A stretch of DNA of 56,794 bases, taken from positions 1 to 56,794 of the IMG/VR virus record IMGVR_UViG_3300032308_002493. One strand, given 5' to 3'. This DNA comes from a virus. Its lineage: Duplodnaviria > Caudoviricetes. Under the pieces are notes generated by a model. That model was not told the DNA's origin, did no database searches, and saw only the letters and a list, made by a program, of their open reading frames with translations. Made by a program: the position numbers and the translations under genes. Positions 154-56,794 of the stretch are shown here, piece after piece (within the stretch, counting starts at the first letter, position 1; every line of letters starts with the position of its first letter).

Positions 154-198
154 GGCTGGCGCTGCGGCATGGGCCAGTCTGAAGCCCTAGGCCGCAGC

Positions 199-744: not shown

Positions 745-2094
745 GTGCCAGTGACGCATGAGTTGAGATTTGATCGGGGCTTGATTGCTCCGAATCGGAG
801 CTGGGAGAAAACCCCAGAGGGTTATATGCGGGTGCATGGCACTTTCGCCCGCACCGGCTGTCAGACCTACCGACGCCAGGACGGCAGCACCCAGGTGGAA
901 TATCGCCCAGAGGAGGAGGTGGCGCACCGCGATTCCATCCTCTCCCTGGGGGGGCTGCCGGTGACGCTGGAGCATCCGCCCACCCTGTTGACGCCCGCAA
1001 ACGCCCGCGAATACCAGCGGGGCAGCACCGGCTCAGAGGTGGTCTACGACTCGGGGTTTGTGAAGGGCACTGTCACCCTCACCGATGCGGCGATTATCAG
1101 CGCCGTCGAGCGGGGCGACGCGGTGGAGCTATCGCTTGGTTACCGGGTGGAAATTGACCACACCCCTGGCGTCGCCCCAGATGGCACCCGCTATGACGCG
1201 GTGCAACGCCACATTTCCGCAAACCACCTGGCGGTGACGCGCCAGGGGCGCTCCAACGGCGCCGGGGCTCCCGCCGGTGGCCGCCGGGTGGCCCTGCACC
1301 TGGATTCGGCTGAGATCACCGACTGGGCCGAGTCGGTGGACTGCCATCAATTTGATTCCCTATCTGCCCCGGAGGGCAACCACATGAGCACTGAATTTTC
1401 CAGTCGCAGCGATGGCCGCGGCCAAAAGCCCATGGCACCTGCCGCCATGGAAGAGGAGATGGAAGAGATGGAGGAGGTGATGGAAGAAGACCCCGATGCG
1501 GAGGGCATGGAAGAGGGGGAGATGGATCCTCCTGTGACCCCCAAGGCCAAGCGCCCCCCCGGTCGCCGCGACAGCTTCAGCAGCGACAGCGTTTCGCGTG
1601 CTGAATACGACCGGGTGCGCTCGGCCCTGACCGCCCGTATCTCACAACACGAAGCGGATCTAGGACGCCTCGATGCTTTATCCATCCGCCTGGATGAGCT
1701 GGAGAGCGAGATTGCTGATCAGCCAGGTGAGCGGCTTGATGCCGATCAATTCGATTCGCTGGTAAGCGAACGGGTGGAGCTGCTGGAGAAGGCCACCGCC
1801 ATGGCTGGTGAGCGAATTGATGCCGCCGGCAAAAGCGCCCGTGACATCCAGCTGGAGGCCCTGGATGCCATCGGCTACGACACCGATCGGCTGGATGGCC
1901 GAACCAACGAGTACGTGGCCGCCACCTTTGACGCCATGGCTGATCGGCCCGATGGCAGGCGGCTGGACAGCACCACAGCTCTGGCCCAGCTGTTGGGCCA
2001 GGCCGGCCGCCCCAGCGACAACGACGGACTGGCGGCCTACAAGGCGGCCACTGCCGCCGCTTCAACGCAGCCGCTGATGAATCACGCGGCCTGA
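745..2094 (+). CDS. DUF2213-family prohead protease/scaffold
   Basis: TPEGY, ARTG-Q-Y, EYRPEEEV, PVTLEHP, ELSLGY, YDAVQR-I-ANHLA motifs; acidic/coiled-coil C-terminus; upstream of capsid genes. Confidence 0.9.
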   Translation: MPVTHELRFDRGLIAPNRSWEKTPEGYMRVHGTFARTGCQTYRRQDGSTQVEYRPEEEVAHRDSILSLGGLPVTLEHPPTLLTPANAREYQRGSTGSEVVYDSGFVKGTVTLTDAAIISAVERGDAVELSLGYRVEIDHTPGVAPDGTRYDAVQRHISANHLAVTRQGRSNGAGAPAGGRRVALHLDSAEITDWAESVDCHQFDSLSAPEGNHMSTEFSSRSDGRGQKPMAPAAMEEEMEEMEEVMEEDPDAEGMEEGEMDPPVTPKAKRPPGRRDSFSSDSVSRAEYDRVRSALTARISQHEADLGRLDALSIRLDELESEIADQPGERLDADQFDSLVSERVELLEKATAMAGERIDAAGKSARDIQLEALDAIGYDTDRLDGRTNEYVAATFDAMADRPDGRRLDSTTALAQLLGQAGRPSDNDGLAAYKAATAAASTQPLMNHAA

Positions 2095-30094: not shown

Positions 30095-31390
30095 ATGTCT
30101 AAATCCCCTCCGGCCTGTGGCCAGTTTGCGATGGTGCCGGTTGAGCTGCTAGAGGCCTGCGCCGAATCCAAGGCGCGGCTGTTCATCTACCTCTGGCTCT
30201 GGCACTACGCCGGCAAAAACGATCAGGCGTTCCCCTCCCTGTCCCGGCTGAGTGCCGATTGCCGGATGCGCCGCAACGACCTGGTAGCCGGTCTGGCCTG
30301 GTTGGAGGCCGCAGGCTGGATTGCCGTGGAGCGCCGCGCCCAGCAATCCAACACCTATCGGGTGCGGCGGATTGCCGTTGAACGCAGCCCCAAACCAGGG
30401 GGCAAAAAGCGGTCCACTAGTGTCCAAAAAGCTACTAGTGTCCAAAAAGCTACTAGTGTCCAAAAAGCTACTAGTGGCCAAAAAGCTACTAGTGGCCAAA
30501 CGGACACTAGTGTCCAAAAAGCTCAGGAGGTAGTGTCCGAATCGCTACTGGAACAAGAAGCATTAACAAGAAAAGAAAAAATCCAAGAGAGGAACCCCCT
30601 TACCCCCATTGATCCGGCGGGGCCGTTGGCAACGGTTGGGCCCGATCCGGAGCCAACGCCAACAGCCTCAAAGGCACCAACCGCCCCGCAGCCACCAGCG
30701 GCGCCAGAACCCGCCGCAAAGCAGCCAGTGGCCATTGCCCAACCCCTGGAGCCGCAGGCCGCGGCCATCGAGCCCCAGGCGCTTGCAGCGCCATGCCCAA
30801 AGCCCGTGGCGGCACCCGCCTCCTCGTTGGCGTTGAGCAACCCCCTGGCAGGGCCCCAGGAGGCCTCCGGCCCCATGGCCGGCCCGATGGACCCGCAGCC
30901 CCCCTGCAGCCCCCCTGCAGCCGCCAATCCGGCCCGCAAAGGCCGCAAGCCAGCCGGGCCTGTGCCGCTGCCCCCCGATGCTCCGCCGTTGGAGCCAGCT
31001 GAGCTGGAGCTGCTCACAGCCTGGTGGCAGCTGCGCTGCGACAAACATTCCAGGGCCAACCGCACGAAGCTGGGCACCGGCAACCTGGCGGCCCTCGCCG
31101 AAGCAGCGCAGCGCGGCGTGCTGCTGGCCTACCTGCACAAGGCCGAAATGGCCGGTTGGCAGAGCCTGGACCACAACGGCAGATCAGAAGCGATCGAGCG
31201 CTTGGCCGCGGCGCACCAGCTGGCCACCAACCCCCGAGCCGATTTTCCCGGTGGGGGCCTTCATCCCGAAAACAGGATGTATGATTCGCGCAGACCGAAC
31301 CCCGGTCAACCCAGCCGCCGCCAGCAAACCATGGCTCGGCTCAACAACCTGTTCAAACCCGAGGATGGAGGCCCCGATGATCACCCATGA
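30095..31390 (+). CDS. Replication initiator (N-terminal winged HTH, lambda O-like)
   Basis: FIYLWL...AFPSLSRLS-DC...L-WLE--GWI...SNTY; internal iterons. Confidence 0.85.
   Translation: MSKSPPACGQFAMVPVELLEACAESKARLFIYLWLWHYAGKNDQAFPSLSRLSADCRMRRNDLVAGLAWLEAAGWIAVERRAQQSNTYRVRRIAVERSPKPGGKKRSTSVQKATSVQKATSVQKATSGQKATSGQTDTSVQKAQEVVSESLLEQEALTRKEKIQERNPLTPIDPAGPLATVGPDPEPTPTASKAPTAPQPPAAPEPAAKQPVAIAQPLEPQAAAIEPQALAAPCPKPVAAPASSLALSNPLAGPQEASGPMAGPMDPQPPCSPPAAANPARKGRKPAGPVPLPPDAPPLEPAELELLTAWWQLRCDKHSRANRTKLGTGNLAALAEAAQRGVLLAYLHKAEMAGWQSLDHNGRSEAIERLAAAHQLATNPRADFPGGGLHPENRMYDSRRPNPGQPSRRQQTMARLNNLFKPEDGGPDDHP
30416..30523 (+). repeat. Six 18-bp tandem repeats (iterons, putative origin)
   Basis: ACTAGTGTCCAAAAAGCT x4 plus two variants, followed by an A-rich tract at ~30555-30590. 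Confidence 0.85.
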
Positions 31391-35032: not shown

Positions 35033-35074
35033 GCCGCAGCCAGCGGGGGCGGTGGCCGCGGCGCCCCTTTGCCC

Positions 35075-35146
35075 TTGCCAGATCGTTACGGACGCGCTAC
35101 AGTATGGGGACCGGAGCCGAGGGGCCCCACCACCCAACAGGCAGCC
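35075..35146 (+). promoter_or_regulatory. Sigma70-type promoter copy 2 plus conserved leader
   Basis: TTGCCA-N17-TACAGT, then GGACCGGAGCCGAGGGGCCCCACCACCCA. Confidence 0.8.
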
Positions 35147-37904: not shown

Positions 37905-38180
37905 CTGTTAGTGCGTGCACTACGCCGCAAAAAATAAAATCCTTAGCTTGCTGCTCTTGTGGTAATTGATCAAAGGGCACAAGACAAGGATGCTGCTTCA
38001 ATTGACTTCGCGCGCCACTCGGGCAATTTGTTCTAAAGCTTGGCAATAAGCACGATTGACTTCGTGCGCCACTCGGGCAATTTCAATCAGATCGTGGGCA
38101 AATTGTTCTGAAGCTTGGCAATAAGCACGATTGACTTCGTGCGCCACTCGGGCAATTTGTTCTGGAGTCATTTCAGTCAT
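37879..38180 (-). pseudogene. Scrambled RyR-domain phage protein
   Basis: IARVAHEVN(RAYCQA) occurs three times, then a stop; the C-terminal KQHPCLVPFDQLPQEQQAKDFIF-GVVHAL is in another frame. Confidence 0.75.
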
Positions 38181-41068: not shown

Positions 41069-41188
41069 GGCCTGCTTTAACGCAACGCACCATGAATATA
41101 TTGCGGCTGCATCCCGGCTGCAGGATAAAGCGACGGCGGCGTGGTTTTATCCGCCCCGCTGCCTAGCCTGGCCCAGGCGCCATTCCCC

Positions 41189-43219
41189 ATGTCCGGTCAA
41201 TCCCCTCCATTGCTAGAGGAGCGCAACGATGGCGTGTTGATCAATGCGCTGACGCGCATGGGCACCAGCCGTGACCGCTCCAGCTACACGGCCATAGCTC
41301 CAGTTCGCTTGCTGCAAGAGGAAGAGCTGGACAACCTCTACGTGAGCAGTTGGCTTTGCCGTCGGGTGGTGGACCTGGTTGCCAGTGAAGCCACCAGGTC
41401 CGGCTGGGGTATCGCCGTGGGAGGCGATGTGAATGAGGCCCAAAAAAAGCGCCTCGACAAACTGGTATCGGCCGGGGAAAGCCTGGGCATTCGAGATCAT
41501 GTGCGCGAGGCCTTGCGCATGGCACGCCACCATGGCGGGGCGGTGATTGTGCTGTTGCTCGACGACGGGCTACCAATCAGCAAGCCCGTGGATCCCAAAC
41601 GGCTGCGCTCGATTCGGGGCCTGTACGCGATGGATCGCTGGCGCATCTGGCCTGCCCCTGGTTGGTCTGGGGTGGGCGCACCGGATCGTTATCAATTTGT
41701 TGTATATCAAGACGACGATTTGAAGCGAGCGGGAATGGATGAGCAGGAAATAGGGGTGCCAATTCATAGTTCCCGTTTGCTGCGCTTTGACGGCGACCCC
41801 CTGCCCCCCAGGCTTAAAGGCCAGAACAACTGGTGGGGCGTGTCTGTGCTGCAGAGCCTCTGGGAGGTGTTTAAACGATATGAAACCGGACAGAAAAGCG
41901 GATCGGCCATCCTCGACGATTTCAGCCTTTTTGTGCAAAAAATAAAGGGTTTAGGCCAGATGGTGGCCAATGGGAAGGAGGCGGCAATTCAGGCCCGGCT
42001 GGAACTAAACGGCCTATGCCGGTCTGTGTTGGGAGGCATTGCCATCGATGCCGACGGCGAGGACGTTGCCTGGATCACCCGATCCCTGGGGGGCATCGAT
42101 ACGGTGATCGGCAAGCTGGAAACGGAAGTGCAGGGGGCCTCCAGGATCCCCCACACCAAGCTCTGGGGCGCGTCCCCCAGCGGTCTGGGGGCCAATGGCC
42201 GATCAGAGGATGCCGCGTTCGCAATGGAGGTGGGCCAGCAGCAGCAGGATCATTTGGATCGGCCCCTGCGCCGCTTTTACGAGCTGCTGGCTGCCTGTTC
42301 CCGCGGGCCCGCAGCCATGGAGCTGCCAGAAGACTGGAAAATCGATTTCCACGACACCTTTGTGCTTTCGGATTCAGAGGAAGCCGAGCTGCGCTCCAAA
42401 CAAGCAACCACAGATACCGCCTATATCAGGGAGCAGGTGATCACACCTACGGAGGTGGCGCTGGCTCGATTCAGCGGCGCCAAATTCTCCATGGAGACCG
42501 TGCTGCTCAACCGGGAAGCGGATGGCTCCATCCCCCAGCCCGATGAGGGCCCCGGCCCCGATTTTGGTGGTGACCTGGAATCGGCAGACACCACCGGCGG
42601 CGACCCAGCCAGCGGTGATACCCCCGATGAGCCCACCGCTCCAGCCGCATCAGCGGCGGCCGGCACCGCCGAGCTCACGCCAGAGGAGCAGGCCGCCGCG
42701 GCCAGGGGTGACGGCCTGGCAGGCGCCAGCGATCCCCGAGAGGATGGCTGTTGCTCCGCCTGCGATGAAGAGGTTGCGCAGCAGCAAAAAGACACCTCCG
42801 CACCGGAGGAAGAGCCCATCCCGGATGACGGCCAGGCCCTGGCTGCGGCCATCGCCCAGCGGATTGCCAAGCCCGGCAGCGCTCGGCGCCGCGGCAGGCG
42901 GGCTGGTGTGCGGGCCGATGGGGCTCGAATCACCGGCCGGCGGGTGGTGGCGGGCGTGCCGCTGGAGGTGCGGGCCGATGGTTCCGCCGCCCTGGTGGGC
43001 CCCTACGGCCAGCCAATTGCGAGGCTGAATGCAGCGGTAGGTTTTGACAGCGAGGGGCTGTGGGAGGTGCTGGGAGCTGGCGGCCAGTGGTGCGCTGTGG
43101 TGGGAGTGAACGATGCCGAGCTGGTGAGCACCGCGGCAGGGGCCAGCGCCCGGGTGAGGCGGCTGGATGGACTCGATTTGATCGCCATGGGTGTGAGGTG
43201 CGACAGCTATGGGAATTGA
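41189..43219 (+). CDS. Portal protein (DUF1073-like) with long C-terminal extension
   Basis: LY--SWL-RRVVD--A-EATR, IHSSRLLRFDG, WWGVSVL, IPHTKLWG-SPSGL-A-G; acidic extension. Confidence 0.9.
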   Translation: MSGQSPPLLEERNDGVLINALTRMGTSRDRSSYTAIAPVRLLQEEELDNLYVSSWLCRRVVDLVASEATRSGWGIAVGGDVNEAQKKRLDKLVSAGESLGIRDHVREALRMARHHGGAVIVLLLDDGLPISKPVDPKRLRSIRGLYAMDRWRIWPAPGWSGVGAPDRYQFVVYQDDDLKRAGMDEQEIGVPIHSSRLLRFDGDPLPPRLKGQNNWWGVSVLQSLWEVFKRYETGQKSGSAILDDFSLFVQKIKGLGQMVANGKEAAIQARLELNGLCRSVLGGIAIDADGEDVAWITRSLGGIDTVIGKLETEVQGASRIPHTKLWGASPSGLGANGRSEDAAFAMEVGQQQQDHLDRPLRRFYELLAACSRGPAAMELPEDWKIDFHDTFVLSDSEEAELRSKQATTDTAYIREQVITPTEVALARFSGAKFSMETVLLNREADGSIPQPDEGPGPDFGGDLESADTTGGDPASGDTPDEPTAPAASAAAGTAELTPEEQAAAARGDGLAGASDPREDGCCSACDEEVAQQQKDTSAPEEEPIPDDGQALAAAIAQRIAKPGSARRRGRRAGVRADGARITGRRVVAGVPLEVRADGSAALVGPYGQPIARLNAAVGFDSEGLWEVLGAGGQWCAVVGVNDAELVSTAAGASARVRRLDGLDLIAMGVRCDSYGN

Positions 43220-44738
43220 TCGCCGCGAACAGCTGGCCGAACAGCTCAGCGAGGCTTTGCGGGGCCTGGAAGACCCAGCAATCCAGCGCATCGGCCGCAT
43301 TTTTGAAGCAGCGCTGAGGGATACCGTGGCGCGGGTGTTTGAGCTGCTGGAGACGAATGCCGATCAGCCCGACTACAACCCCGCCAACAGCCCCGGTGCC
43401 TTTCTGGGCAGCACCCCAGATGGGCCGGTTCCCATTGAGCCGCTGCAAAAAAACCAGGCAGGGCTGCTGCTGCAGGCCCAGCTGATTCAAGATTTGCGGG
43501 TGGTGCTCAATGCGGTGCCGCTTAGCCCCGAGCGGCTGGAGCGATTGAACGGGGAGCTGCGCCAGCTGTTCGATCGGGCCCAGGACCTGGGCACCAATTA
43601 CGGACTGCAGCTGATTCAGGCAGATCTGGCCCCGGCCATGGTCCAGCTCGATCCCGATGGCACCATTCGCCAACTGCCAGGCCAGGAGGCAGCGCCGGCG
43701 GCGCCAGCATCGCCAGCGCTGCCCGGCACTGCCCCCCAGTCTCCAGCGGGGCCTCTGATTGGTGGTGGCCCCAGCCCCACCGGCGGACGGCCCACCGCCT
43801 CAGCCCCGGCCACCGGACCCGCCGGCCCCTTGGCAAGCGGCGGCCCTGGCCTCGGCCCCGATCGGCAGTATCAGGGCGGCCAGCGGCTGACGCGCTTGTT
43901 TGATCTTTCCGGGGCGGTGGTGGCCGCCGAGCGGGATTTCAAGGGCCTATCGGAAAACTACCGCCGCGAACGGGATTTAGCGACCGATCAACACGTGGCC
44001 GCGGCGAAGCACTATTACTCCAAATGGTGGGGCGAGTGGGGGGAAAGCGTGTCGTTTGAGACCTCGCGCCAGATGGCCCAGGGGCCGGACCCCAAAACCC
44101 TGGCGCGGAATTTGCGGGAGCGGATTCCCACGATCAACGAGGCGTTTCAAAATCGGGCGGAAACCATCGCCCGCACCGAAACCCTGATGGCCTCCGGCGA
44201 AGCCCAGGAGCGCTGCTGGCGCAAATTGCGCGTGGGTTTTGTGCAATACATGGCCACGCTGGACGAACGCACCTGTGAGTTCTGCGCCCCCCGCTCTGGC
44301 TGCATTTACTACATCGGCTCAGTAAAGAGCCCGATTCACCCCAACTGCCGCTGCCAGGAAACACCGGTGAGCCTGGAATCGCTGGCGATTGAAAACGACC
44401 TGGCGGATAAACCAGCCGAGCGGTGGGAGGCCCAGGCCAAGCGCCATCACAAAAACACCCTGGGCCATTTCTTCCGGGCCAATGGCAAGGGGGCCAAATT
44501 GCGGCCGGTGGGTGGTGCGGGTGATGAGCGCTTCACACCACGCGATTACCCGTTGATGGAGCGCAAGCAGCTGCCCCAATCCGTGCCCCGCCAGGGGCTG
44601 GGGGGGGAAGATCCGCTGAACCTGGCCGCCAGGCCCTGGCCCACAGGCGATCCGGTGTGGTGCCCCAGGCGCGGCTGGCTGGATCCAGCAGCCCAAGCCG
44701 CCTACGACGCGATCGTGCGCGAGGTGGCCGAGCTCTGA
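43209..44738 (+). CDS. Phage Mu gpF/SPP1 gp7-like head morphogenesis protein
   Basis: RAETIARTE, ATLDERTC--C--R-G, P-HPNCRC. Confidence 0.9.
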   Translation: MGIDRREQLAEQLSEALRGLEDPAIQRIGRIFEAALRDTVARVFELLETNADQPDYNPANSPGAFLGSTPDGPVPIEPLQKNQAGLLLQAQLIQDLRVVLNAVPLSPERLERLNGELRQLFDRAQDLGTNYGLQLIQADLAPAMVQLDPDGTIRQLPGQEAAPAAPASPALPGTAPQSPAGPLIGGGPSPTGGRPTASAPATGPAGPLASGGPGLGPDRQYQGGQRLTRLFDLSGAVVAAERDFKGLSENYRRERDLATDQHVAAAKHYYSKWWGEWGESVSFETSRQMAQGPDPKTLARNLRERIPTINEAFQNRAETIARTETLMASGEAQERCWRKLRVGFVQYMATLDERTCEFCAPRSGCIYYIGSVKSPIHPNCRCQETPVSLESLAIENDLADKPAERWEAQAKRHHKNTLGHFFRANGKGAKLRPVGGAGDERFTPRDYPLMERKQLPQSVPRQGLGGEDPLNLAARPWPTGDPVWCPRRGWLDPAAQAAYDAIVREVAEL

Positions 44739-45189: not shown

Positions 45190-45525
45190 ATGCGGGCCCA
45201 GATCGTCGAGACGGAGCTGGTCACAAGGCGCAGCTGGCATGGCAGCATCCGCGCAGCCTGGGGCGGGCAATGCGCCTACTGCGGCGCCACCGCTCAATCA
45301 CTCGATCACGTGATCCCCCGCAGCCGGGGCGGCCCCACCGTTCGTGAAAACTGCGTACCGGCCTGCCTGGCATGCAACGGAAGCAAGGGCAGCCGGGAGG
45401 TGCTGAGCTGGTGGCGGCTCCGGCCCGGCTGGTCGGCCCTCAGGGAGCAGCGGCTGCTGGAGTGGCTGGCGGGCAATAACAATGGCGGCAATGAGAAAGG
45501 GGCCCCGAAAGGCCCCTTTCCATAA
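45190..45525 (+). CDS. HNH endonuclease
   Basis: CAYCG...[11 protein letters not shown]...[12 protein letters not shown]. Confidence 0.9.
45495..45520. terminator. Perfect 10-bp hairpin between convergent units
   Basis: GAAAGGGGCC-CCGAAA-GGCCCCTTTC. Confidence 0.6.
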
Positions 45526-46617: not shown

Positions 46618-47352
46618 CTAAGGCGCTAGCCGTGCCTTAGCCCAGCGGTGCTGGTGATACCAGGCGGCGATTTCAGGGGCCCAACTTTGCAGGTGGGGCC
46701 ACATCAAATCGCAGAGCTGGCGAATTTCATCCTGGGCATCGAGCTTGGCCCGCAGGTCTAGGAAGTGCAGGAAGGCCCGCAGGCTGAAGCTCACCACAAA
46801 GTGTTGGCGAACGTCGAATGGAATTAACCCCCTGGCCTGCTCAAATGGCTCGCCAAGACAAACACTGAAGCGGTAGGAAAGGGCGGCTTCGTGGCAGCGC
46901 TTAACATCAAGGGCGCGCTTTTGGGTTGTGTATTCATAAGCCTTGCCGGAGTCTGGGTCTCTGTAAGTCCCCGCCGGCCTAATGTAAAACACATCTTCAA
47001 GGTCCAGCTCGCCTGTGGCAGCATCGCAGATGCGCACCCCCGTATAGCGTAGACTCTGCACATCGAACGAAACCCCGACCCGATGTGTGCGGGCCTGCTG
47101 CATCACGGAATGGGGAAACCAGCCCACGTTGAGTACGATCTGGCCGTGCTCCAGGGGCCCGTAGTGGCCGCGGTCGCCGGCCAATAGGCGCTTGACGCAG
47201 ATCTCGCCAGCCTTGGTTTCGTCAGGCCAACTGGCACGGCTATCGAATACAAAACCTTCGCTGTAGTCCTGGTGCATCGCCGCGTAGACGCACTGCTGGG
47301 GGTGGGGGGTGGCGGCGATCAGGTCAACTCTGAAGCGGGAATCCATGGTCAT
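46618..47352 (-). CDS. thyX: FAD-dependent thymidylate synthase
   Basis: GHYGPLEH, QQARTHRVGVSFDVQSLRY, EQARGL, HFLDLR---DAQ-EI. Confidence 0.95.
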   Translation of the reverse strand: MTMDSRFRVDLIAATPHPQQCVYAAMHQDYSEGFVFDSRASWPDETKAGEICVKRLLAGDRGHYGPLEHGQIVLNVGWFPHSVMQQARTHRVGVSFDVQSLRYTGVRICDAATGELDLEDVFYIRPAGTYRDPDSGKAYEYTTQKRALDVKRCHEAALSYRFSVCLGEPFEQARGLIPFDVRQHFVVSFSLRAFLHFLDLRAKLDAQDEIRQLCDLMWPHLQSWAPEIAAWYHQHRWAKARLAP

Positions 47353-47531
47353 TGTGCCACCTCCGAGCGATTACTAATGGCCTGAATACTGGGCGCAATC
47401 ACCACCGAAGCAAAGCCATATACGACCCAAACAAAAATTGACGCAAGAAGAAAAAGCTTAACAAGATGCCAAAGAATAGAGGAGAGCATTTGCCTAATCC
47501 ATGTGGGTGAGGTGGAATGCGCCATGGGCAA
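47349..47531 (-). CDS. Small membrane protein
   Basis: Long hydrophobic stretch; ATGA overlap with thyX. Confidence 0.5.
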   Translation of the reverse strand: MPMAHSTSPTWIRQMLSSILWHLVKLFLLASIFVWVVYGFASVVIAPSIQAISNRSEVAQ

Positions 47532-48213
47532 GAAGGAGGCTGCTGCTGCGGCCTGATTGCAGCCAGTCGAGATAGCTTTGCGCCGGTGGCGTGAGCCGCA
47601 GCGATCGGCGGGCGTTGGGTTGCCAGTTCACCAAGCCGTTGTTGCGCAGCAATACCAGATCGCGGCAAGGGCACGAGTGGTTGCGATAGCCCAGAGCGTT
47701 GCTGAGATCATGCAGCGACGGAGCTTGTCCGATTTCGGCAAACCAAGCGAGCGTTTGCAGCAATCGGACTTGGCGCCTGTTGATTGGCGGTATGTAAGCC
47801 TGATTTGCATCAACTGGTGGCATGGGGGCCACCGTTCTGCCGTCGCCGTTAGGGTCTAAGCGGGCTTGCCTTAGGCGTTTTTGCAGAACATTGTCTGCTG
47901 TTTTTTGCCGCTCCTGGGGGTTGTAGGCGGTGGCCCCTTGCAAGGCAAACCAGTCGCGGCACTGAGGGGTAAGGCGCAGGGATCGCGGCAAGTGCGATTT
48001 CCATTCAATCCAGCCTTTGCTACGCAAGGCTTTCAGTTCGCGATTGGGGGCGGCTGTGGTGCGATAACCCAGCTGCAATGCCAGCTCCGCTCTGGTGGGC
48101 GGTTGGCCAGGGGCCAGCTGTTCATGCGCCCGTAGTGCCGCAAGCACTTGCTGCTCTGCCTTGGTAAGCGGCTGCAACGCCGTAGCGGACGTTGCGATCA
48201 GGGCAGTGCTCAC
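47494..48213 (-). CDS. Protein with two tandem LexA-type DNA-binding domains
   Basis: LT--EQ-VL...PPTRAELA--LG...L-AL--KGWI...RSLRL occurs twice; no peptidase domain. Confidence 0.75.
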   Translation of the reverse strand: MSTALIATSATALQPLTKAEQQVLAALRAHEQLAPGQPPTRAELALQLGYRTTAAPNRELKALRSKGWIEWKSHLPRSLRLTPQCRDWFALQGATAYNPQERQKTADNVLQKRLRQARLDPNGDGRTVAPMPPVDANQAYIPPINRRQVRLLQTLAWFAEIGQAPSLHDLSNALGYRNHSCPCRDLVLLRNNGLVNWQPNARRSLRLTPPAQSYLDWLQSGRSSSLLLAHGAFHLTHMD

Positions 48214-48797
48214 CGCTTGAGCGCCTCCATCAACAGCTGGGCCTGCGATTGAAGCCAACGGGCCTCATCGCGCAATGCCTCTTCCTCTTTGGGGAACTTC
48301 ATGGCCATGGCGCCTCGGCCTTGGCCTGATGCCCGTTGCATCAGGCTTGCGCTTAACTCAAACCCTCCTTGGCTATTGATGCGGCCCACAAACTCCCATG
48401 GATGCTGGGCGGTATTGAGGGGCATGAACCTGGTATCGCGGCGCAACTCCACCACGGCACCGGCCAGAAAAGTGCTAGTTCCATCGCAGCGCTCGGCAAT
48501 GGGCGGCCTCTGAATGCGGATCTGCTCATTGCTAAAAGGGCGATCCAGCAGCCAGGCCCAGGGGCCAGACGTGGTGGTGCGCAACTGGCCGCTGATTTCG
48601 AGCGCCAGATATTTCAGCCAGCCGGATTGAGCCGGTGAAAGGCCGGCACGCTGGGTAGCCAGCTTGATTGCAAAATCTCCCACCTGCTGATGGGCGGCAT
48701 GGGCCTGAAGCACGATTCGCCGGGCGTCTGCATCGGTGAGATCGCAGTTGAATCTCACCGTTACGCCGGAGCGTCTTTCCAATTCAATGATGGGCAT
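48210..48797 (-). CDS. Hypothetical protein
   Basis: 195-aa coupled ORF. Confidence 0.65.
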   Translation of the reverse strand: MPIIELERRSGVTVRFNCDLTDADARRIVLQAHAAHQQVGDFAIKLATQRAGLSPAQSGWLKYLALEISGQLRTTTSGPWAWLLDRPFSNEQIRIQRPPIAERCDGTSTFLAGAVVELRRDTRFMPLNTAQHPWEFVGRINSQGGFELSASLMQRASGQGRGAMAMKFPKEEEALRDEARWLQSQAQLLMEALKR

Positions 48798-49779: not shown

Positions 49780-49977
49780 ATGGATGCCAAGCAAGAAATG
49801 GCGTCAATCGTTAAAGATCTCATTGAAGAGCTGCTAAGTGCGCCCATCACGATCACAACTCTCAATAGCAATCGAGCGACAGGCGTCGTAGATGGCCGGT
49901 TCCGCTCAGGCGCACTAGTCTACGACTACAGGATCAAGGGCGACGACGTGAGCTACAAGCCAATCACTAATCGCTAG
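49780..49977 (+). CDS. Small protein similar to the N-terminal domain of 50839-55560
   Basis: LIEELL...GVVDGRF-SGALVYDY-I----VSYKP vs LGELL...GLVAGQM-ADGLVFQF-----ISYRP. Confidence 0.7.
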   Translation: MDAKQEMASIVKDLIEELLSAPITITTLNSNRATGVVDGRFRSGALVYDYRIKGDDVSYKPITNR

Positions 49978-49979
49978 CC

Positions 49980-50759
49980 GTGCCATCCGCCACTGAATTT
50001 GACCGTCAACACCTGGCGGCATCACGCAGCTACCTGAAGGCCTTCTACGGCTGGAGCGGTGCCCGGCTGGATGGGTTTCTGGCTGTGGAGCAAGGCCTGG
50101 TGCGCTTTGATGCACCCAAAAGATGCACCAAGGGACTCGCCTGCGGCAACACTTGCATCGCGCAGGGCCGCACCTGCAGGGCCAAGGGCAACCCGCAGAA
50201 AACCGCCCGGCTCAAGCAACTGCTGGCCTTGCCTGCTGCTGGCCAGAGCAGTGCGGGAGCCATGGCCAAGGGCAGTGGGGGCAATCAGGCAAGCACTCCG
50301 GCCAAGGCTGCAGGCAAGCCCGCCAAGCGCGAAACCATTGCTCAATTACAAAAACCCGTCCTTGATTACTTCAAGGTGAAAACCGTTCAAGAACTAAAGA
50401 CAAACAAAGATTTCCTGATGGCAATTGGAGACGCTGACTCCAGGCAGGCAACCGGCAAAGGTGTAAAGATTGACTTTAAAAAGCGAGAGACATGGGCCAA
50501 GCTGCACCGTGAATTTGCCGGGGTGCCAGCCTCTGAGCGGAACCTGAAAGATGGCGGCAGCGTAATCAGAGGCGTTGACGTAATGAAGAACTTCCGCCCC
50601 TGGCACACCTTCAACCTAGACCCTAAAAAAGCCACGCCACAAGACATCAAGCGGGCTTTTAATCAGCTGGCCAAGACCTACCACCCAGACCAGGGCGGTG
50701 ACCGCAAAGTGTTTGAGCGGCTGATAAAAATGCGCGATTCGTTGTTGGCGCTTCGCTGA
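49980..50759 (+). CDS. Cys4-module protein with C-terminal J-domain (DnaJ-like)
   Basis: RFDAPKRCTKGLACGNTCIAQGRTC; PW-TFNL...DIKRAF--LAKTYHPDQGG. Confidence 0.85.
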   Translation: MPSATEFDRQHLAASRSYLKAFYGWSGARLDGFLAVEQGLVRFDAPKRCTKGLACGNTCIAQGRTCRAKGNPQKTARLKQLLALPAAGQSSAGAMAKGSGGNQASTPAKAAGKPAKRETIAQLQKPVLDYFKVKTVQELKTNKDFLMAIGDADSRQATGKGVKIDFKKRETWAKLHREFAGVPASERNLKDGGSVIRGVDVMKNFRPWHTFNLDPKKATPQDIKRAFNQLAKTYHPDQGGDRKVFERLIKMRDSLLALR

Positions 50760-50838
50760 GCCCGCTCTTGTCCCCCCTTCTGATCGATGGCCACCACCTA
50801 CCGCGCAGATCGCCGCAGACTGGCGCAGCGCTAAAGCC

Positions 50839-53800
50839 TTGCCATTGTTGACCCTCGCCCAGCTGGAAGTGCGACTGGCGCGGCTGGATGCCGCCAGCTC
50901 CAGGGCGGCGCCCCTGGCACCGGTGGCTGCGGCCGTTGCGCAATCGGCGGATACGGTGGCGCAGCTGCTGACCCAGGCGCTGGGGGAGCTGTTGCCGGGG
51001 GCTGCGGTGTTGAGCTGGGATCGGCGCCGGCCGGGCCTGGTGGCGGGGCAGATGGCAGCCGATGGGCTGGTGTTCCAGTTCCGCTGTGACGCCAATCAAA
51101 TTTCATATCGTCCCGCCTGGGATGGGCTGAGCCAGGGGCGATGGGAGGCCCGCAGCGCTGGCTTCCTGGCGGCCCGATCGCCAGGGCTGCGGCTCGATGC
51201 TCCAGGGGCTGGCGGCAAAAAGCGCTGCAGCAGGGGCTACGGCTGCGGCAACAGCTGCATCTCTCTGAAGAATGAATGCCGGCTAAAGGTGAGCTCGGCC
51301 GCCAGCAAAACGCGGCTGCAGCGGTTGCAGGCCCTCGCCAATGCCGGTGATGCCGCCGCCGGCACCCTGGCCGGGCAGGAACAGGCCAAGCGGAACTCCC
51401 AGGCCGCGGCCATCAAGGGCCAGCGCCAACAGGAGCGGGCTGCCAGGGCGCCCAAAACGCCCCCCAGCCTGGCGGGCCAGGTGCGGGTGGTGGCACCGGC
51501 CAGCATTGAGGTGGATCCCGAGCGGTTTCAGTTCAAGCTGGGCCATGGCGCCCAGGGAGAGGTGGGCTCCCTGCGAGGGGTGCGCAAGTGGGATGAGAAT
51601 TTGGCTGGGGTGGTGTCGGTTTGGCAGGACCCGGCGGATGGCAAAACCTATGTGGTGAATGGCCATAACCGGCTGGGGTTGGCCAAGCGCCACGGGGCGG
51701 AGGGGCTCACCGTGCGTTACCTCAAGGCTGCCTCGGCTGCAGAGGCGCGGGCGATCGGGGCGCTGCAAAACATTGCGGAAGGGGCCGGCACACCGGTGGA
51801 TGCCGCCAAGTTTTTTCGAGATAGCAATATCCGCAGCCAGACGGATGTGGAGAAGTTGGGTTTGCCGCTCAGCAGTGGCCGGGCGGCCCAGGGGCTGGGG
51901 TTGGCACGGCTGCCTGCAGAAATGTTCCGCTCGGTGGTGGACGGGGATCTGAGCGCCAGCCGTGGGGCAATCATCGGCAACTCAGGCCTTGATGGCCCAA
52001 AGATGAGCGAGATCGGCAAGTTGTTGCGGCAGCGCAAAAACATATCTGACGGCACATTGGCGGAGTTTGTGGAGGCCCTGGCCGTGAGCGAGCGGCAAAG
52101 CCAGCAAACATTTGATCTATTTGGCGCTAACGAAACGCTGGTGGATAACGGTCTGGCACGGGCTGAATTAACCAACGCAATTGCCAAAAAGATCAGCAAG
52201 GAGAAGCGACTATTTAAGATGGTGAGCAACTCCCAGGCGGCGGCCACCCTGGCGGAGAAGGCGGGCAATGTGATCAACAAGGGCGAGAGCGCCGAAGTGG
52301 CCAGTGCCGCCGATCAGCTGGGGCGCACCTTCAAGGCGCTCAAAAATGTGTCTGGCCCCATGGCCACCGCCATCAATGCCGCTGCCCAGCAGGTGAGCGA
52401 AGGAGCCAACAAAACAACGGTGCAACGCAAACTGTACGCGGAGGTGGTGGCCGCAATGGAGCTTGAATTCAAGGGCAAGCGCCGCGATGGCTGGGGCCAA
52501 AGCACCATTGATCGCTTTGCAGAGCTGGAAGCCCGCATTGATGCGGCCAAGAAGAAGTGCTCGACCGGCTACGGCTGCGGCAGCACCTGCATCAGCCTGC
52601 GCAAAGAATGCCGGGCCAGGCCGAGTAGCAGCATCGGAAAAGAGCGGCTGAAGCGGCTGTTGGCCTTGGCCGGCGGTGGAGTTTCTGACCAGCGGGGGAT
52701 CGCCCCGGTGCGGGCCGCCGAGGCCACGGCCCTGGCCGGAGCGCTTGAGCAGCGCCGGGAGGAGAAGGCCCAGCAACTGAAGGGCACCCGTCAAAAGGCC
52801 ACAGCGGATGATCTCGCTAAACGACTGATCAAGGCAGAAGCAAACCTGGCCGCAAAGAGCAAGATGCCTGCACCACCACCAGGCAATGGAAAGCCTGGTG
52901 TGAAGGTGGAGATCCAACGGGCCAAGCCAGGAGGTGAGTACGGGCCCGATGGCCACTGGTATCCAGGCGGCGCATGGATGAGCCAGGGCCAGTTTGTGGG
53001 AGGCAAAGAGCAGGCCCTTGGCAGTGGTGAGCAGCCGGCGTCAGCAACTGGCAAGGAAAACAGCGGCGCCAGCCAGCGGGTGATCAGGAACAAGGAAAAG
53101 CCCAGGAGGGAGCAACCAACCGAGCCCAAGGGGAAGGGACTGGATCAGCCTGTCGGGCTGAAGAAGACAGCGGCCAAGAACGATGAGGACTTCTTCAACG
53201 ACAGGGGCTTTGTTCTCTATCCCCGTCCAAAAGGCGCTGCAGGCCTGAATGGGCTTCTGTTCGACGCTGCAGTCATTCAGCGGATGTCGACAGAAGAGCT
53301 GGGCTGGGCAACGGATCAGATCCTGACCATGGGGAACGTCAAGCGGAGCGATCTGGGCGTTGTAAATGATCTGGAGAATGCCGCCACAAGGTTTGGCAGC
53401 GAAAAGGACTATCTCAACTACCAGAGGTCTTTTACCCGAAACCAGCTCATCGGCGTGGATGACAAAAGGTTCAAGGCCGGCCTGATCTTCATGGACGCCA
53501 GCCGCAACCTGGGCCACACCAGTCCAGCGCAGCAGCGCCTCCGCACCAGGCGCAAGACAACGGAAAACCCACCGGAGAGGAAGGGCGAGCAGGGGGACTG
53601 GGTCTGGGGCCTGAACAACGTGTTCCGCGCCGTGCAGCTTCGCCGGGATCGCATGGCAGCCCCCTCGGTGCTCACCAACCCCGGCCGCCAGGATCCCGGC
53701 CTGGCCTCCAAGGCCAAGCAGCCAGGCCTCAACGCCCAGGACGTGACCACCAGCACGCAACAAGCCGCCTTTGCTCGCCAGCAGCAGCAGGCGGCCAAGG

Positions 53801-55560
53801 CCGCCGGGGATCAATCCGGGGCACAGGCCTGGCGCAAAGAGGAGCGGACCGTGGAGCGCAACCGGCTGGCCACCGCCATCGGCCGCAACAAGCAGAGCCA
53901 GAGCTCGCTGTTTGGAGTGACCGAATACGACGAGACCATGCCGCTGTTCAAGAAGCGGGGCGACGGCCGCCGGCTGGATGCCGACATCCTCGAAGCCAGG
54001 ATCGATGCACTGCGTCGGAAGTGCCAGACCGGTTACAACTGCGGCAGTACCTGCATCAGCCTGCGGAAGGAATGCCGCAGCAGGCCAGGCAGCTCAATCA
54101 GCAAGGAGCGGCTCAAGCGGCTCCAGCAACTGGCCCGGGGCGAGGTGGCCCCCAGGGGGCTGGGGGTGCCCAGGGGCGCGGCAGCCACCGCCCTGGCCAC
54201 GGACATTCAGGGGCGGCGCAATGCCAGGGCGGCAGAGCTCACGGGGCAGCGGGCACAAGCCGGGCTTATCCCCACAGCGCTGCCGTTTAGCGATCAGATG
54301 GCCGCCCGGATCCGGAAGGGCATTGAGGAGCGCACCGCTACCACCGGCACCGTCAACTACGACGGCAAGGATTTGGCAGCGGCGATGATCAAGGCGGCCC
54401 AGTCGCCTCAGGTAGGCGAAAACATGCGCAAGGCCCTGGCCTTCATGGAAGAGGCCGGAATTATGACAAATATTGCCGCGAACAGCAATGAAGAGATTAA
54501 GCGGATAACTGGAAAGCCTGCCAGCGAACTGCCGTGGCAGCGGCCATTGGAACTTGCCAAGTTCGTACGTGATGCGGGGCTGGTGTCGGATGAAAGACTG
54601 GAATGGCTGAAGAAAGACCAGACTCAGGCCGGTCAGGCGGTGGTCCGGCGTGCAGAGATTGTTCGCAACCCACCAAAGCCCAGCAACGAAGAAAAGCAAG
54701 CAAAAGCCAACTACGAAAAATCAAAGGCTTACATAAAAGAGCAAGAGCAAGCATTTGATAGAAGCGTGCGCCAGGGCTGGAGATTTCCCGAGGACAAAAA
54801 AAGCTTTATGCAGGCCACCAAAAACATGACAGGCTTGGAGAACGATCGCAATCGCTATTTTGCGTATAGAGACGGCAGGTTGAATCAGATCAAGTGGGCA
54901 GTGCTAGAATTTGCCTGTGGCAAAGGGTTAGCAGGGCTTACGTCAAGCGAGAATGGTGGCTACTACTCTTTCGGGCAAAAAAAGTATGTGGCAGTCGCCG
55001 GCAATACGGACAAAAGCTGGGCTGGCGTTTACAAGGTTGACGAAAACAACACAGACCCAAGGAATATGCGAAGGCACTACGCCGAGCACATGGCAAAGCA
55101 CCTCCCGGACAGGCTCGCCGGGCTGTCTCAGACATCCGACAACTTCGACGTGCTCCACCAGCCTCTAGGGTTTAGCGGGAGGCAAACACACGCCGAAAAA
55201 ACCCTTAGCATCCATATCCATGAGCTGGGCCATGTCGTGGATAACTTTGCTGATGTGCGGGTCAGGGAGATCCCCGCAACCGCCGCTGGACCAAAACAAA
55301 TGGTGCTCTCCCATAATTTTCTTGAGCGAGTAGAGAAAAGGCCCGAGGCTGTTAAAAAAGCGCTTAGGGAGAAACGGGCGCCATCAAACTATGCTTTAAC
55401 CAACGCCGAAGAGCTGTTTGCCGAATCGTTTGCGGCTTGGGTGTTTGCCCCACGTGCATTGAAGCGGCATCACCCAGAACTGCATGCCTGGGTAGAGGAC
55501 CGATTTACAAGGGCACGTACTACCATGGCGAAGCATGGGCACCTAAGGTTTGAGGAGTAG
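50839..55560 (+). CDS. Polyvalent-like polyprotein: three Cys4 modules, ParB-like domain, unknown domain, HExxH metallopeptidase
   Basis: Modules at ~51190, ~52522, ~53989; DPERFQFK...YVVNGHNR; HIHELGH...SNYALTNAEELFAESF. Confidence 0.85.
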   Translation: MPLLTLAQLEVRLARLDAASSRAAPLAPVAAAVAQSADTVAQLLTQALGELLPGAAVLSWDRRRPGLVAGQMAADGLVFQFRCDANQISYRPAWDGLSQGRWEARSAGFLAARSPGLRLDAPGAGGKKRCSRGYGCGNSCISLKNECRLKVSSAASKTRLQRLQALANAGDAAAGTLAGQEQAKRNSQAAAIKGQRQQERAARAPKTPPSLAGQVRVVAPASIEVDPERFQFKLGHGAQGEVGSLRGVRKWDENLAGVVSVWQDPADGKTYVVNGHNRLGLAKRHGAEGLTVRYLKAASAAEARAIGALQNIAEGAGTPVDAAKFFRDSNIRSQTDVEKLGLPLSSGRAAQGLGLARLPAEMFRSVVDGDLSASRGAIIGNSGLDGPKMSEIGKLLRQRKNISDGTLAEFVEALAVSERQSQQTFDLFGANETLVDNGLARAELTNAIAKKISKEKRLFKMVSNSQAAATLAEKAGNVINKGESAEVASAADQLGRTFKALKNVSGPMATAINAAAQQVSEGANKTTVQRKLYAEVVAAMELEFKGKRRDGWGQSTIDRFAELEARIDAAKKKCSTGYGCGSTCISLRKECRARPSSSIGKERLKRLLALAGGGVSDQRGIAPVRAAEATALAGALEQRREEKAQQLKGTRQKATADDLAKRLIKAEANLAAKSKMPAPPPGNGKPGVKVEIQRAKPGGEYGPDGHWYPGGAWMSQGQFVGGKEQALGSGEQPASATGKENSGASQRVIRNKEKPRREQPTEPKGKGLDQPVGLKKTAAKNDEDFFNDRGFVLYPRPKGAAGLNGLLFDAAVIQRMSTEELGWATDQILTMGNVKRSDLGVVNDLENAATRFGSEKDYLNYQRSFTRNQLIGVDDKRFKAGLIFMDASRNLGHTSPAQQRLRTRRKTTENPPERKGEQGDWVWGLNNVFRAVQLRRDRMAAPSVLTNPGRQDPGLASKAKQPGLNAQDVTTSTQQAAFARQQQQAAKAAGDQSGAQAWRKEERTVERNRLATAIGRNKQSQSSLFGVTEYDETMPLFKKRGDGRRLDADILEARIDALRRKCQTGYNCGSTCISLRKECRSRPGSSISKERLKRLQQLARGEVAPRGLGVPRGAAATALATDIQGRRNARAAELTGQRAQAGLIPTALPFSDQMAARIRKGIEERTATTGTVNYDGKDLAAAMIKAAQSPQVGENMRKALAFMEEAGIMTNIAANSNEEIKRITGKPASELPWQRPLELAKFVRDAGLVSDERLEWLKKDQTQAGQAVVRRAEIVRNPPKPSNEEKQAKANYEKSKAYIKEQEQAFDRSVRQGWRFPEDKKSFMQATKNMTGLENDRNRYFAYRDGRLNQIKWAVLEFACGKGLAGLTSSENGGYYSFGQKKYVAVAGNTDKSWAGVYKVDENNTDPRNMRRHYAEHMAKHLPDRLAGLSQTSDNFDVLHQPLGFSGRQTHAEKTLSIHIHELGHVVDNFADVRVREIPATAAGPKQMVLSHNFLERVEKRPEAVKKALREKRAPSNYALTNAEELFAESFAAWVFAPRALKRHHPELHAWVEDRFTRARTTMAKHGHLRFEE

Positions 55561-55567
55561 CGCTGAG

Positions 55568-55912
55568 ATGGCCGGCGACATAAAGGATGCCCAGGCATTG
55601 ATAACAGGCATGAACGGAAAGTTAGATCGTTCTGCTGTTGTTCGTTGGGCTGCAATCAAAAACAAAGCTACAGGCCGGGAGCGAGAGGCAATTTCCTGGA
55701 TGGCTGAAGCCTTTGGCCCCATGACAAAAACAGAGGAAGACCGCCGCTGGCTGTCAAGTTTCCTTAGTGGGATCCCTGAATCAGCGCCAAAAAAGAGCAC
55801 CCGCGGCGATGGTGTTGGCCACCAAAGCCCAGGCGATCGACTTGCCGAGCTGGAGACGCGAATTGATGCTGTCAGTAAGGCCAACGGCTCCAGGCCGCCG
55901 CTGCAGCAGTGA
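55568..55912 (+). CDS. Small protein ending in a truncated module linker
   Basis: Ends ...RGDG...DRLAELETRIDA without the Cys4 part. Confidence 0.65.
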   Translation: MAGDIKDAQALITGMNGKLDRSAVVRWAAIKNKATGREREAISWMAEAFGPMTKTEEDRRWLSSFLSGIPESAPKKSTRGDGVGHQSPGDRLAELETRIDAVSKANGSRPPLQQ

Positions 55913-55953
55913 AGCCCACCCCCCGCCGCCGGCAACTGCCCAAGGGCTGATCC

Positions 55954-56794
55954 ATGGCGGTGAGCACTGACATCAATGCCCGGTTTGCAGCCCTCGGGGC
56001 CCGCATCGATGCGGCGCGGAAGCGCTGCGGCACCGGTTACAGCTGCGGCAACAGCTGCATCAGCCTTCAGAAGGAATGCAGGGCCAGGCCTGGCAGCGCG
56101 ATCAGCAAGGAGCGGATTCAGCGGCTTCAGCAGCTGGCCCGGGGCGAGGTGGCCCCCAGGGGGTTAGGTGTGCCTGGGCAGACGGCCGCGGCGGCCATGG
56201 CTGCCAGCCTTCACGGCCAGCGCAGCCAAAGGGCCGTTGAACTGCAGGCCAAGCGGCAAGCGAGGGCTCGCCAGTCCGCTCCAGTGGCGGCGATCACGGC
56301 GGCCGAGATAAAGCGGGCCTTCCCGCTGCCCACCGCCCAACAGCGCCAGCAGCGCGATCAGCTGCAAAACGCCACCAACCTGGCCGCAGCCGAACGCCAG
56401 GCGGTTTTCGATTACAGCGCCACCACCAGAGGGCCTCGGGCGGCATCAGCGCTCAACCGCTGCCTGCGACAACCGGCCAGCTGCCGCCAGAAAAAGGCCA
56501 CCGCCGCCATGGCAACAGATTTTGATGCCGCATTGCAAAAATTACCCAAGAACATAGAAGGTGCCCCTTTTTATCGGGGCATAGCAGTAAAAGACAGCAA
56601 TATGCAACGCCTGTATCAACAATTGCTCAAGGCTCGGCCTGGTGAGCGGTTTGCGGATCAGGGTTACGGCTCCTACTCCGACGACCGGCGAGTGGCGGCC
56701 ATCTATGCGGAGGCCAATGGCCCCGCCCCAGCGATCGTGTTGGTGAGCCGCAGCCAGGCCATCACCGGCATCAGTGCCATCTCCGGCTACCGCA
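55954..56794 (+). CDS. Cys4-module protein with ADP-ribosyltransferase domain (3' truncated by the window edge)
   Basis: Not in the track (no stop). MAVSTDINARFAALGARIDAARKRCGTGYSCGNSCISLQKEC...AVFDYS...LNRCLR...FDAALQKLP...FYRG...DQGYGSYS; VIP2/C3-like pattern. Confidence 0.8.
   Translation, partial: MAVSTDINARFAALGARIDAARKRCGTGYSCGNSCISLQKECRARPGSAISKERIQRLQQLARGEVAPRGLGVPGQTAAAAMAASLHGQRSQRAVELQAKRQARARQSAPVAAITAAEIKRAFPLPTAQQRQQRDQLQNATNLAAAERQAVFDYSATTRGPRAASALNRCLRQPASCRQKKATAAMATDFDAALQKLPKNIEGAPFYRGIAVKDSNMQRLYQQLLKARPGERFADQGYGSYSDDRRVAAIYAEANGPAPAIVLVSRSQAITGISAISGYR

Follow-up and report, generated by a model that had tools for sequence, protein, structure and literature searches.

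A recurrent four-cysteine module with an R-x-D leader precedes unrelated payload domains in a tailed-phage contig and may mark virion cargo

IMG/VR virus record IMGVR_UViG_3300032308_002493 (Duplodnaviria; Caudoviricetes) is a tailed-phage genome on one contig of 56,794 nt, with 0 N and a G+C content of about 60%; this whole stretch was analysed and is called the window here. Towards its right end, a short protein module composed of an R-x-D leader and four conserved cysteines (the Cys4 module) is repeated in front of different payload domains. The original prediction had taken this module for a capsid-targeting or DNA/zinc-binding handle on effectors that are packaged, released by proteolysis and injected into the host. 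The Cys4 module proved to be a real protein family, which carries different payloads and is found next to virion genes in most of the viral loci where it was located. From this synteny and from motif statistics, it is somewhat probable that the tagged proteins are virion cargo packaged in the head and separated by the head protease. This is the best available reading of the data, and it upholds the earlier proposal in part.

The copies in the contig were located by a six-frame regular-expression scan of the whole 56.8-kb sequence. The pattern C-x2-G-x2-CG-x2-C gave exactly six matches, all in the expected places, and 0 elsewhere. Five copies are on the plus strand, distributed over three open reading frames (ORFs) between 49980 and 56793, with the first cysteine at nt 50124, 51226, 52558, 54022 and 56026 and the upstream R-x-D starting at nt 50103, 51190, 52534, 53998 and 56002; the sixth copy is on the minus strand at 1-186, with its first cysteine at about nt 81. 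The scan and the R-x-D coordinates agree with the six positions that had been proposed. When the six copies were aligned, the R, D and A of the leader, the four cysteines, two glycines, one isoleucine and the final arginine were invariant. The cysteines follow the spacing C-x5-C-x3-C-x6-C, with a basic K/R-K/R-K stretch before the first one and K-E-C-R after. Since DNA identity among the copies is 62-86%, they are diverged paralogues and not assembly duplicates. The full order of elements at a junction is sometimes a pre-module domain of about 55 residues, then an amphipathic leader ending in R-x-D-[A/S/G], the basic stretch with the cysteine hairpin, and a helix of the form K-E-R-L-x-R-L-x-x-L-A, often followed by P-R-G-I-G.

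The cluster opens with a small ORF of 65 aa (49780-49977, plus strand), which is a stand-alone pre-module domain according to jackhmmer. It is followed by a 259-aa ORF (49980-50759, plus strand) with an RLD/RFD leader, a module (50103 to about 50261), an Ala/Gln-rich linker and a putative J-domain with its HPD at nt 50682 (aa 235). The longest ORF (50839-55560, plus strand) encodes a 1573-aa polyprotein with three modules and three payloads. Its pre-module domain (50953-51117) and module 1 (51190-51363) precede a ParB-like payload, module 2 (52534-52695) precedes a family-less payload with GGEYGPDGHWYPGG (nt 52930, aa 698), and module 3 (53956-54159) precedes an HExxH zincin payload with HELGH at nt 55219 (aa 1461). 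The next ORF, of 120 aa (55550-55912, plus strand), is a truncated junction with a leader-like ELETRIDA; its end reads ...ELETRIDAVSKANG..., with RIDA at nt 55859 and no cysteines, as expected for the truncated linker that had been noticed near position 55840. Homologues of this ORF sit between the last module ORF and MuF in six loci. The last ORF (55954-56793, plus strand) is open at its 3' end and comprises a 20-aa leader, a module (56002-56163) and a putative ADP-ribosyltransferase payload that lacks about 30 aa at the contig end. The inverted module (ELEARIDAARKKC..., 1-186, minus strand) runs off the left end and has no canonical in-frame start.

The payload assignments of the original prediction were mostly right. 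For the J-domain, which has the HPD, the Pfam DnaJ model gave an E-value of 1.1e-5 and 25.9 bits, just below the cut-off of 27.8, and the homologous payload of relatives matches DnaJ with a best E of 8.6e-15. The zincin payload scored 27.5 bits with Peptidase_M90 (cut-off 26.2) and 22.4 bits with ATLF, which is below the cut-off for that model; it matched no polyvalent-specific peptidase model. The contig's ADP-ribosyltransferase copy, about 30 aa short, had no Pfam match, while the full-length 310-aa orthologue in a related locus (L033) reached 25.6 bits with ADPrib_exo_Tox (cut-off 23.4). The ParB-like call comes from ESM Atlas language-model neighbours only, which are ParB/sulfiredoxin clusters (0.95-0.96); no Pfam or PDB sequence match was obtained for this payload, and it matched PHROG 21, a 'portal protein' family, over the C-terminal part of that family with an E of 2.9e-49. 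Homologues of the ParB-like payload (about 32% over 380 aa) were also seen in 17 Prochlorococcus phage records (P-SCSP1a-u, e.g. OM416768.1, 20607-21782) and in a Ruegeria phage. The GGEYGPDGHWYPGG payload had no family by Pfam and no ESM Atlas neighbour. No LPD domain was found by Pfam in the module ORFs of the contig, and none of these ORFs matched a MuF or portal domain.

A profile hidden Markov model was built from the six contig copies and searched against 1.84 billion representative proteins. It matched 347 protein clusters at E ≤ 1e-3, of which 90 reached ≤ 1e-10 and 10 reached ≤ 1e-30. The strict cysteine motif was present in 146 of the 150 best matches, with 222 occurrences in total. 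A protein has up to six module copies, which either stand at the very N-terminus or are spaced 300-800 residues apart in proteins as long as 3641 aa; in the 3641-aa relative, five module matches were found in a local scan and six stretches in the database search. The first cysteine is within 30 aa of the N-terminus in 65 of the 146 matches; solo genes, too, start with the tag. The statement that the module belongs to no named family was confirmed, with no Pfam model matching at E ≤ 10 and no meaningful NCBIfam match at E ≤ 1, and no published description of the Cys4 tag was found in the literature searches made. Two PHROG families contain the module without naming it, 33618 ('unknown') and 16619 ('minor head protein'), the latter also spanning a MuF region. 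In a tblastn search of 50,697 phage records with one module, no match was obtained, and Aphanizomenon phage CL131 and Planktothrix phage PaV-LD were found through longer queries only.

Two candidates were discarded. The NCBIfam model of an FxLD lanthipeptide precursor matched the region of module 3 (53956-54207) with 16.6 bits against a cut-off of 30, probably by chance. In addition, small Cys-rich proteins ending in C-[RK]-[TK]-GYACGNSCIS-x4-CHQPPGCACNG were observed in two Rhodobacteraceae genomes (L064, 9707-10090; L065, 9854-10129). They were rejected as members, since they share only the cysteine core, their context differs and they have no R-x-D; they are probably another family.

The domains downstream of the module were tabulated by a Pfam scan of 144 of the 150 best profile matches, six being omitted for size. 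As had been predicted, the payloads differ, both within the contig and among relatives. DnaJ was the most frequent family (17), followed by DUF676 (9), Palm_thioest, Lipase_3, Peptidase_M90 and LPD1 (5 each), ATLF, LRAT and Rho_N (4 each), ADPrib_exo_Tox (3), Pkinase, PI3_PI4_kinase and GNAT (2 each) and Portal_Mu (1), and many relatives had no match at all. When the 176 post-module segments of at least 80 aa were clustered, 77 clusters were obtained, 53 of them singletons; this stricter clustering replaced a first one, which had merged 136 segments via shared linkers. The payloads of the contig reappear in relatives in other orders and gene positions. A Rho_N-type domain was also noted about 45-50 residues after the module in three matches (P0084, P0140 and P0132; Pfam Rho_N in 4 of 76 in one scan batch), which may be a nucleic-acid-binding extension of the tag.

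The genomic context was studied in 55 viral loci obtained by a scan of IMG/VR, some of which come from the same or near-identical contigs, so that they are not 55 independent cases. The 10-kb flanks were searched by tblastn with the head proteins of the contig. A portal, MuF, protease, cement or capsid homologue was present in 45 of the 55 loci (portal or MuF in 35; protease, cement or capsid in 13), and the linkage to head genes thus extends to other genomes, as the original prediction required. The usual gene orders are portal, module ORFs and MuF, or module ORFs, a minus-strand helix-turn-helix (HTH) gene, protease, cement and capsid. In the contig, the portal (Phage_portal_3; 41141-43219, plus strand) and the MuF-domain minor head protein (43209-44738, plus strand), which is a separate ORF, form the upstream boundary of the variable slot. 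The original prediction placed the cluster between portal/gpF and the prohead protease; it is not directly beside MuF. One relative, P0085, is itself a portal of the Mu type (Portal_Mu, aa 4-296, E 2e-49), and its C-terminal extension bears two Cys4 cores.

Among cultured phages, CL131 has all six of its profile matches within gp044-gp048. These genes stand immediately upstream of gp049, which encodes the tape measure, and one of them, gp047, carries a note as tape-measure-like. Of the six module ORFs of PaV-LD, five are flanked by the head-tail genes on one side and by the tape-measure gene on the other; the depositors gave the module-bearing ORF081R the label 'virion structural protein' and the likewise module-bearing ORF085R the label 'minor virion protein'. 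Virions of CL131 have been examined with LC-MS/MS, which is reported to have found 23 proteins (PMC6293099). In Synechococcus phage S-CBS4, no module was found in the first 22 kb scanned, which span the portal-to-tape-measure genes.

The R-x-D motif of the leader was analysed separately from the cysteines. Among 59 module instances (5 from the contig and 54 from the loci, less than 85% identical), the D is invariant and the R is conserved in at least 90%. Since these instances were picked by the cysteine motif alone, the invariance of Cys and Gly is by construction, while the conservation of R and D is not. In a wider set, R-x-D was found within 22 aa upstream in 156 of 220 instances, compared with 41 of 220 for the D-x-R control, and the distance from the D to the first cysteine is mostly 4-6 residues.

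The same motif is enriched in the head-maturation protease of the contig, a DUF2213 protein (745-2094, plus strand; Pfam and PHROG) with an acidic linker and a C-terminal scaffold-like tail. R-[L/I/F/V]-D occurs 7 times in this protease-scaffold protein against 0.33 expected, six times between aa 324 and 422. In the module ORFs it was observed 9 times against about 1.6 expected. The remaining ORFs are near expectation, with 12 against about 11; the portal, with 3 against 0.49, is counted among them. For nine distinct protease-scaffold proteins, several of which are close relatives, the last 200 aa contain R-x-D 70 times and D-x-R 6 times, the former mostly as R-x-D-[S/A/G]. In addition, R-x-D is present at aa 3-11 in all 10 of the 10 capsid N-termini examined, including those of CL131 and S-CBS4, with G-[A/V/L]-F about six residues on; the major capsid protein of the contig (PF09950; 2764-3705, plus strand) has R-Q-D-A at aa 7-10. 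The scaffold segment RLDALSIRLDEL mirrors the module leader, with the seven-residue spacing that is found in many leaders such as DRIDALEQRLDAL. The 1573-aa protein has eight R-x-D-[A/S/G] sites. Six are within 30 aa upstream of the first cysteine of a module, the N-terminal pre-module domain or the stretch ahead of it has the other two, and the payload bodies, about 1300 residues in all, have none.

From these distributions, R-x-D plus a small residue is probably the cut site of the DUF2213 protease, and the polyproteins would be cut at each junction. The predicted release by proteolysis gains indirect support from the motif being common to the scaffold tail of the protease and to the capsid N-termini, and the cut itself is inferred from this. 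On the specificity of DUF2213 proteases, nothing was found in the titles or abstracts of the papers listed, and the text of the Pam3 paper mentions neither protease nor cleavage.

The repeated unit turned out to be larger than originally read: a separate domain of about 55 aa belongs to it as well. A jackhmmer search started from the 65-aa ORF recovered this domain 25-45 residues upstream of modules in many matches and loci, as well as aa 39-93 or so of the 1573-aa ORF. In distant polyproteins, the pre-module domain stands ahead of several modules in one chain. It is a separate gene ending in TAG in the contig and in two other loci (L031 and L032), and it is fused elsewhere; in the contig the next gene starts 2 nt after the TAG, with GTG, and in the two loci the next start codon, ATG, comes a few bases on.

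A 149-aa unit of pre-module domain plus module was modelled by AlphaFold2 from 17 sequences, with a mean predicted local distance difference test score (pLDDT) of 76 and a predicted template modelling score (pTM) of 0.72. Only in this combination was a confident fold of the pre-module domain obtained. The model has a helix and four strands, a second helix and then the cysteine region, the last of these with pLDDT 85-87. The R-L-D-A site starts the sole internal stretch of low confidence (aa 89-94), and the model suggests that the pre-module domain and the Cys module may pack together around an exposed cut loop. No clear relative of this fold was found: the best Foldseek match had an E of 0.08 (a BLIP-like protein) and the best VIA-align match a Z of 4.0, and the VIA-align rows comprised many generic helix-on-sheet folds (VirB8, cystatin, PepSY). 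Prediction of a complex between scaffold tail and module gave a score of 0.00, which is uninformative either way.

The contig ends and the related locus L033 show how modules and payloads are rearranged. L033 has 88% DNA identity and joins the right end of the contig to position 327 via 1758 nt with three minus-strand ORFs. The zincin payload that it carries upstream of the shared last gene is another one, and the module at the joint breaks off after ...RRKCQTG. The inverted copy at the left end begins exactly at ELEARIDA, after a terminator-like hairpin, and no in-frame ATG, GTG or TTG is present between the stop at 187-189 and the module. This copy is genuine DNA: the probable source run has a 24-kb contig that starts inside it, at position 55, and continues into the head genes, and a contig of a second, unrelated run spans 1-193 at about 89%. 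Its junction with unique DNA at 118-193 is supported by contigs from both runs, and at least 2 kb of further DNA extends to the left in the probable source run; the join from 1-54 to 85 onward crosses a 32-nt repeat node.

If the tagged proteins are head cargo, they would enter the procapsid alongside the scaffold, where the DUF2213 protease would cut them after R-x-D, the motif of its own scaffold tail and of the capsid N-terminus. Polyproteins would be split into single enzymes, each with the basic knuckle of four cysteines at its new N-terminus; this knuckle probably binds a metal and would keep the enzyme with the DNA or the capsid interior. When the DNA is ejected, the enzymes would leave with it for the host, where the J-domain would act on DnaK, the ADP-ribosyltransferase and kinases on host proteins, and the lipases and peptidases on the envelope or on proteins. 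The junction DNA could double as a joint for swapping payload cassettes between phages. A more specific version, which is conceivable although we hold it with some doubt, is that a portable tag for capsid loading and ejection, possibly metal-dependent, is made of two pieces that the protease separates, the pre-module domain and the Cys4 knuckle. It would be used across cyanophages and on the Mu-type portal, with the head protease cutting the exposed R-x-D loop between the two pieces.

Several observations weigh against head packaging. R-x-D is not depleted elsewhere in the proteome, so that a site cannot be defined by the motif alone; in distant members, V/L-D-F-A takes its place or R-x-D is missing. 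Since the nine scaffold proteins and the capsid N-termini are related, their conservation may be structural. The cysteine spacing is unlike that of a classical zinc ribbon, and the module alone gave a poor model (pLDDT 60, pTM 0.27). In the contig, about 5 kb of non-structural genes (HNH, ThyX and LexA-like, partly on the opposite strand) separates the cluster from MuF, and one copy is inverted and without a canonical start. The PaV-LD label of ORF081R may stem from similarity alone, since its C-terminal part resembles head-morphogenesis and peptidase proteins of other phages. Finally, the module genes of CL131 and PaV-LD are not interspersed with the head genes but follow them, upstream of the tape-measure gene. 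This placement makes tail-lumen cargo a live alternative, in which the proteins would be tail-lumen or tape-measure-associated ejection proteins and the tag would dock to tail-assembly components; the position of gp044-gp048 next to gp049 and of the five PaV-LD ORFs before the tape-measure gene fits it, and many payloads are lipases and NlpC/LRAT-type hydrolases, which suit the cell envelope. We nevertheless consider it rather unlikely, since in the contig's own lineage the module genes are near portal/MuF (35 of 55 loci) or head protease/cement/capsid (13 of 55), one member is fused to a portal, and R-x-D is common to the head scaffold and the capsid protein.

The module could also be a nucleic-acid or metal-binding handle of proteins acting inside the cell, not loaded into capsids. 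It would localise each enzyme by binding a metal cluster or DNA or RNA of phage or host, and R-x-D would be no cut site but a structural salt bridge within the leader helix. The segment has a strongly basic character (K/R-K/R-K, K-E-C-R) and four invariant cysteines, the fold of the module alone places R-x-D and its leader in a helix, and Rho_N, a nucleic-acid-binding fold, stands directly after the module in three matches. Such a handle leaves the siting beside virion genes in 45 of the 55 loci and the portal fusion unexplained, as well as the motif-filled scaffold tail and the presence of a tag before every payload of polyproteins, and its probability is judged to be similarly low. Still less probable is that the module is mainly a recombination joint and its peptide a passive linker. 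Cassette replacement exactly at modules in L033, with a broken module left at the joint, would be expected from a joint, as would the scar-like RIDA at 55859, the inverted partial copy starting exactly at ELEARIDA and the different orders of the same payloads among relatives. However, the copies have diverged to 62-86% DNA identity, yet the protein motif is invariant out to CL131 and PaV-LD, which indicates that selection acts on the peptide, and solo genes also begin with the tag (65 of 146). Packaging as head cargo, based on synteny and motif statistics, remains the reading that we prefer.

The virus is probably a siphovirus-like cyanophage of freshwater picocyanobacteria, with Cyanobium or Synechococcus as host. 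Its closest named phage by capsid protein is S-CBS4 (46%), Cyanobium metagenome-assembled genomes contain contigs carrying the same Cys4 module with the same synteny with head genes, and relatives are present in a freshwater run and in a drinking-water run; runs with small word shares were left aside as indications of habitat. Between protease and capsid, the head block contains the cement protein (2138-2719). A minus-strand HTH regulator (451-975; L056, 13837-14127; L057, 5135-5446) stands immediately upstream of the gene for the head protease in the window, in S-CBS4 and in CL131, and also in relatives, a placement within the head gene block that is conserved and odd. Between MuF and the module cluster are the HNH endonuclease (45190-45525) and ThyX (46618-47352, minus strand). 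Adjoining them, a 254-aa protein (47494-48258, minus strand) has two tandem LexA_DNA_bind domains (two stretches by Pfam) without the peptidase part.

Some repeats were observed in addition. About seven tandem 18-nt units, ACTAGTGTCCAAAAAGCT and variants, are at 30398-30541 and look like iterons or operator repeats, and at 38001-38163 a 34-nt word occurs three times and a 63-nt word twice, with a spacing of 54-75 nt. A 35-nt inverted repeat (324-358 and 35069-35103) is 97% complementary, its arms being 34.7 kb apart, and is also present in L033. Contigs from three runs break or branch at 324 and 358, and this repeat could be a regulatory or recombination site.

The proteins injected by cyanophages are little known, though these viruses control major primary producers. 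With a tag that marks virion cargo, dozens of genes that now lack annotation would become candidate effectors of host takeover and anti-defence, open to testing, and the tag would also yield a cut-site rule for the widespread, uncharacterised DUF2213 head proteases. If the two-piece tag is real, the whole injected effector set could be read from sequence (J-domains, kinases, ADP-ribosyltransferases and lipases directed against cyanobacteria), and the tag could load foreign proteins into capsids.

Among known systems, the internal proteins and Alt of phage T4 carry a capsid targeting sequence that is cut by the gp21 prohead protease, and in this way unrelated proteins, including an ADP-ribosyltransferase, enter the prohead and are injected. 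The T4 leader has 10-20 residues and is wholly removed, whereas in the present case the cargo would retain a folded Cys4 element, and there is no sequence similarity. The sites differ as well, L/I-x-E for gp21 and R-x-D with a DUF2213 protease here, and the tag is repeated inside polyproteins. For the giant phages SPN3US and phiKZ, the prohead protease is reported to cut many proteins of the head interior at a short consensus, and these are ejected into the cell (PMC5694885, PMC7411985, PMC10052503). Both the protease family and the motif of these phages are other than those found here. We know of no shared Cys4 tag in SPN3US or phiKZ.

In effectors fused to MuF or portal proteins, too, head-assembly proteins bear variable effector domains. 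PHROG 16619 covers a MuF domain together with the module, and P0085 is a portal with two Cys4 cores; the tagged proteins of the contig differ in being separate genes without a MuF or portal domain. A zinc ribbon has two CxxC-type knuckles on beta hairpins, whereas the cysteines here are spaced C-x5-C-x3-C-x6-C, and the models show short strands around them.

There is also a likeness to the polyvalent proteins, which are predicted to be packaged, processed by their own zincin domains and delivered with the DNA (Iyer, Burroughs, Anand, de Souza and Aravind, 2017; PMC5512222). The main text of that paper makes no mention of cysteine, ribbon or DnaJ. As in the polyvalent proteins it describes, unrelated effector domains (zincin, ADP-ribosyltransferase, ParB-like) are encoded in one polypeptide together with virion genes: the 1573-aa ORF combines at least two unrelated effector-type domains (the ParB-like domain, the GGEYGPDGHWYPGG payload and the zincin), and its zincin (HELGH, Peptidase_M90) corresponds to the zincin hub of such proteins. 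LPD1, a domain defined in the same work, was found in 5 of 144 module relatives, and no LPD domain in the contig. Instead of self-processing by a zincin, as described there, a repeated junction tag bears the motif of the head protease. We place the system with the phage polyvalent or capsid-cargo proteins, and the R-x-D/scaffold statistics and the pre-module domain are what is new here.

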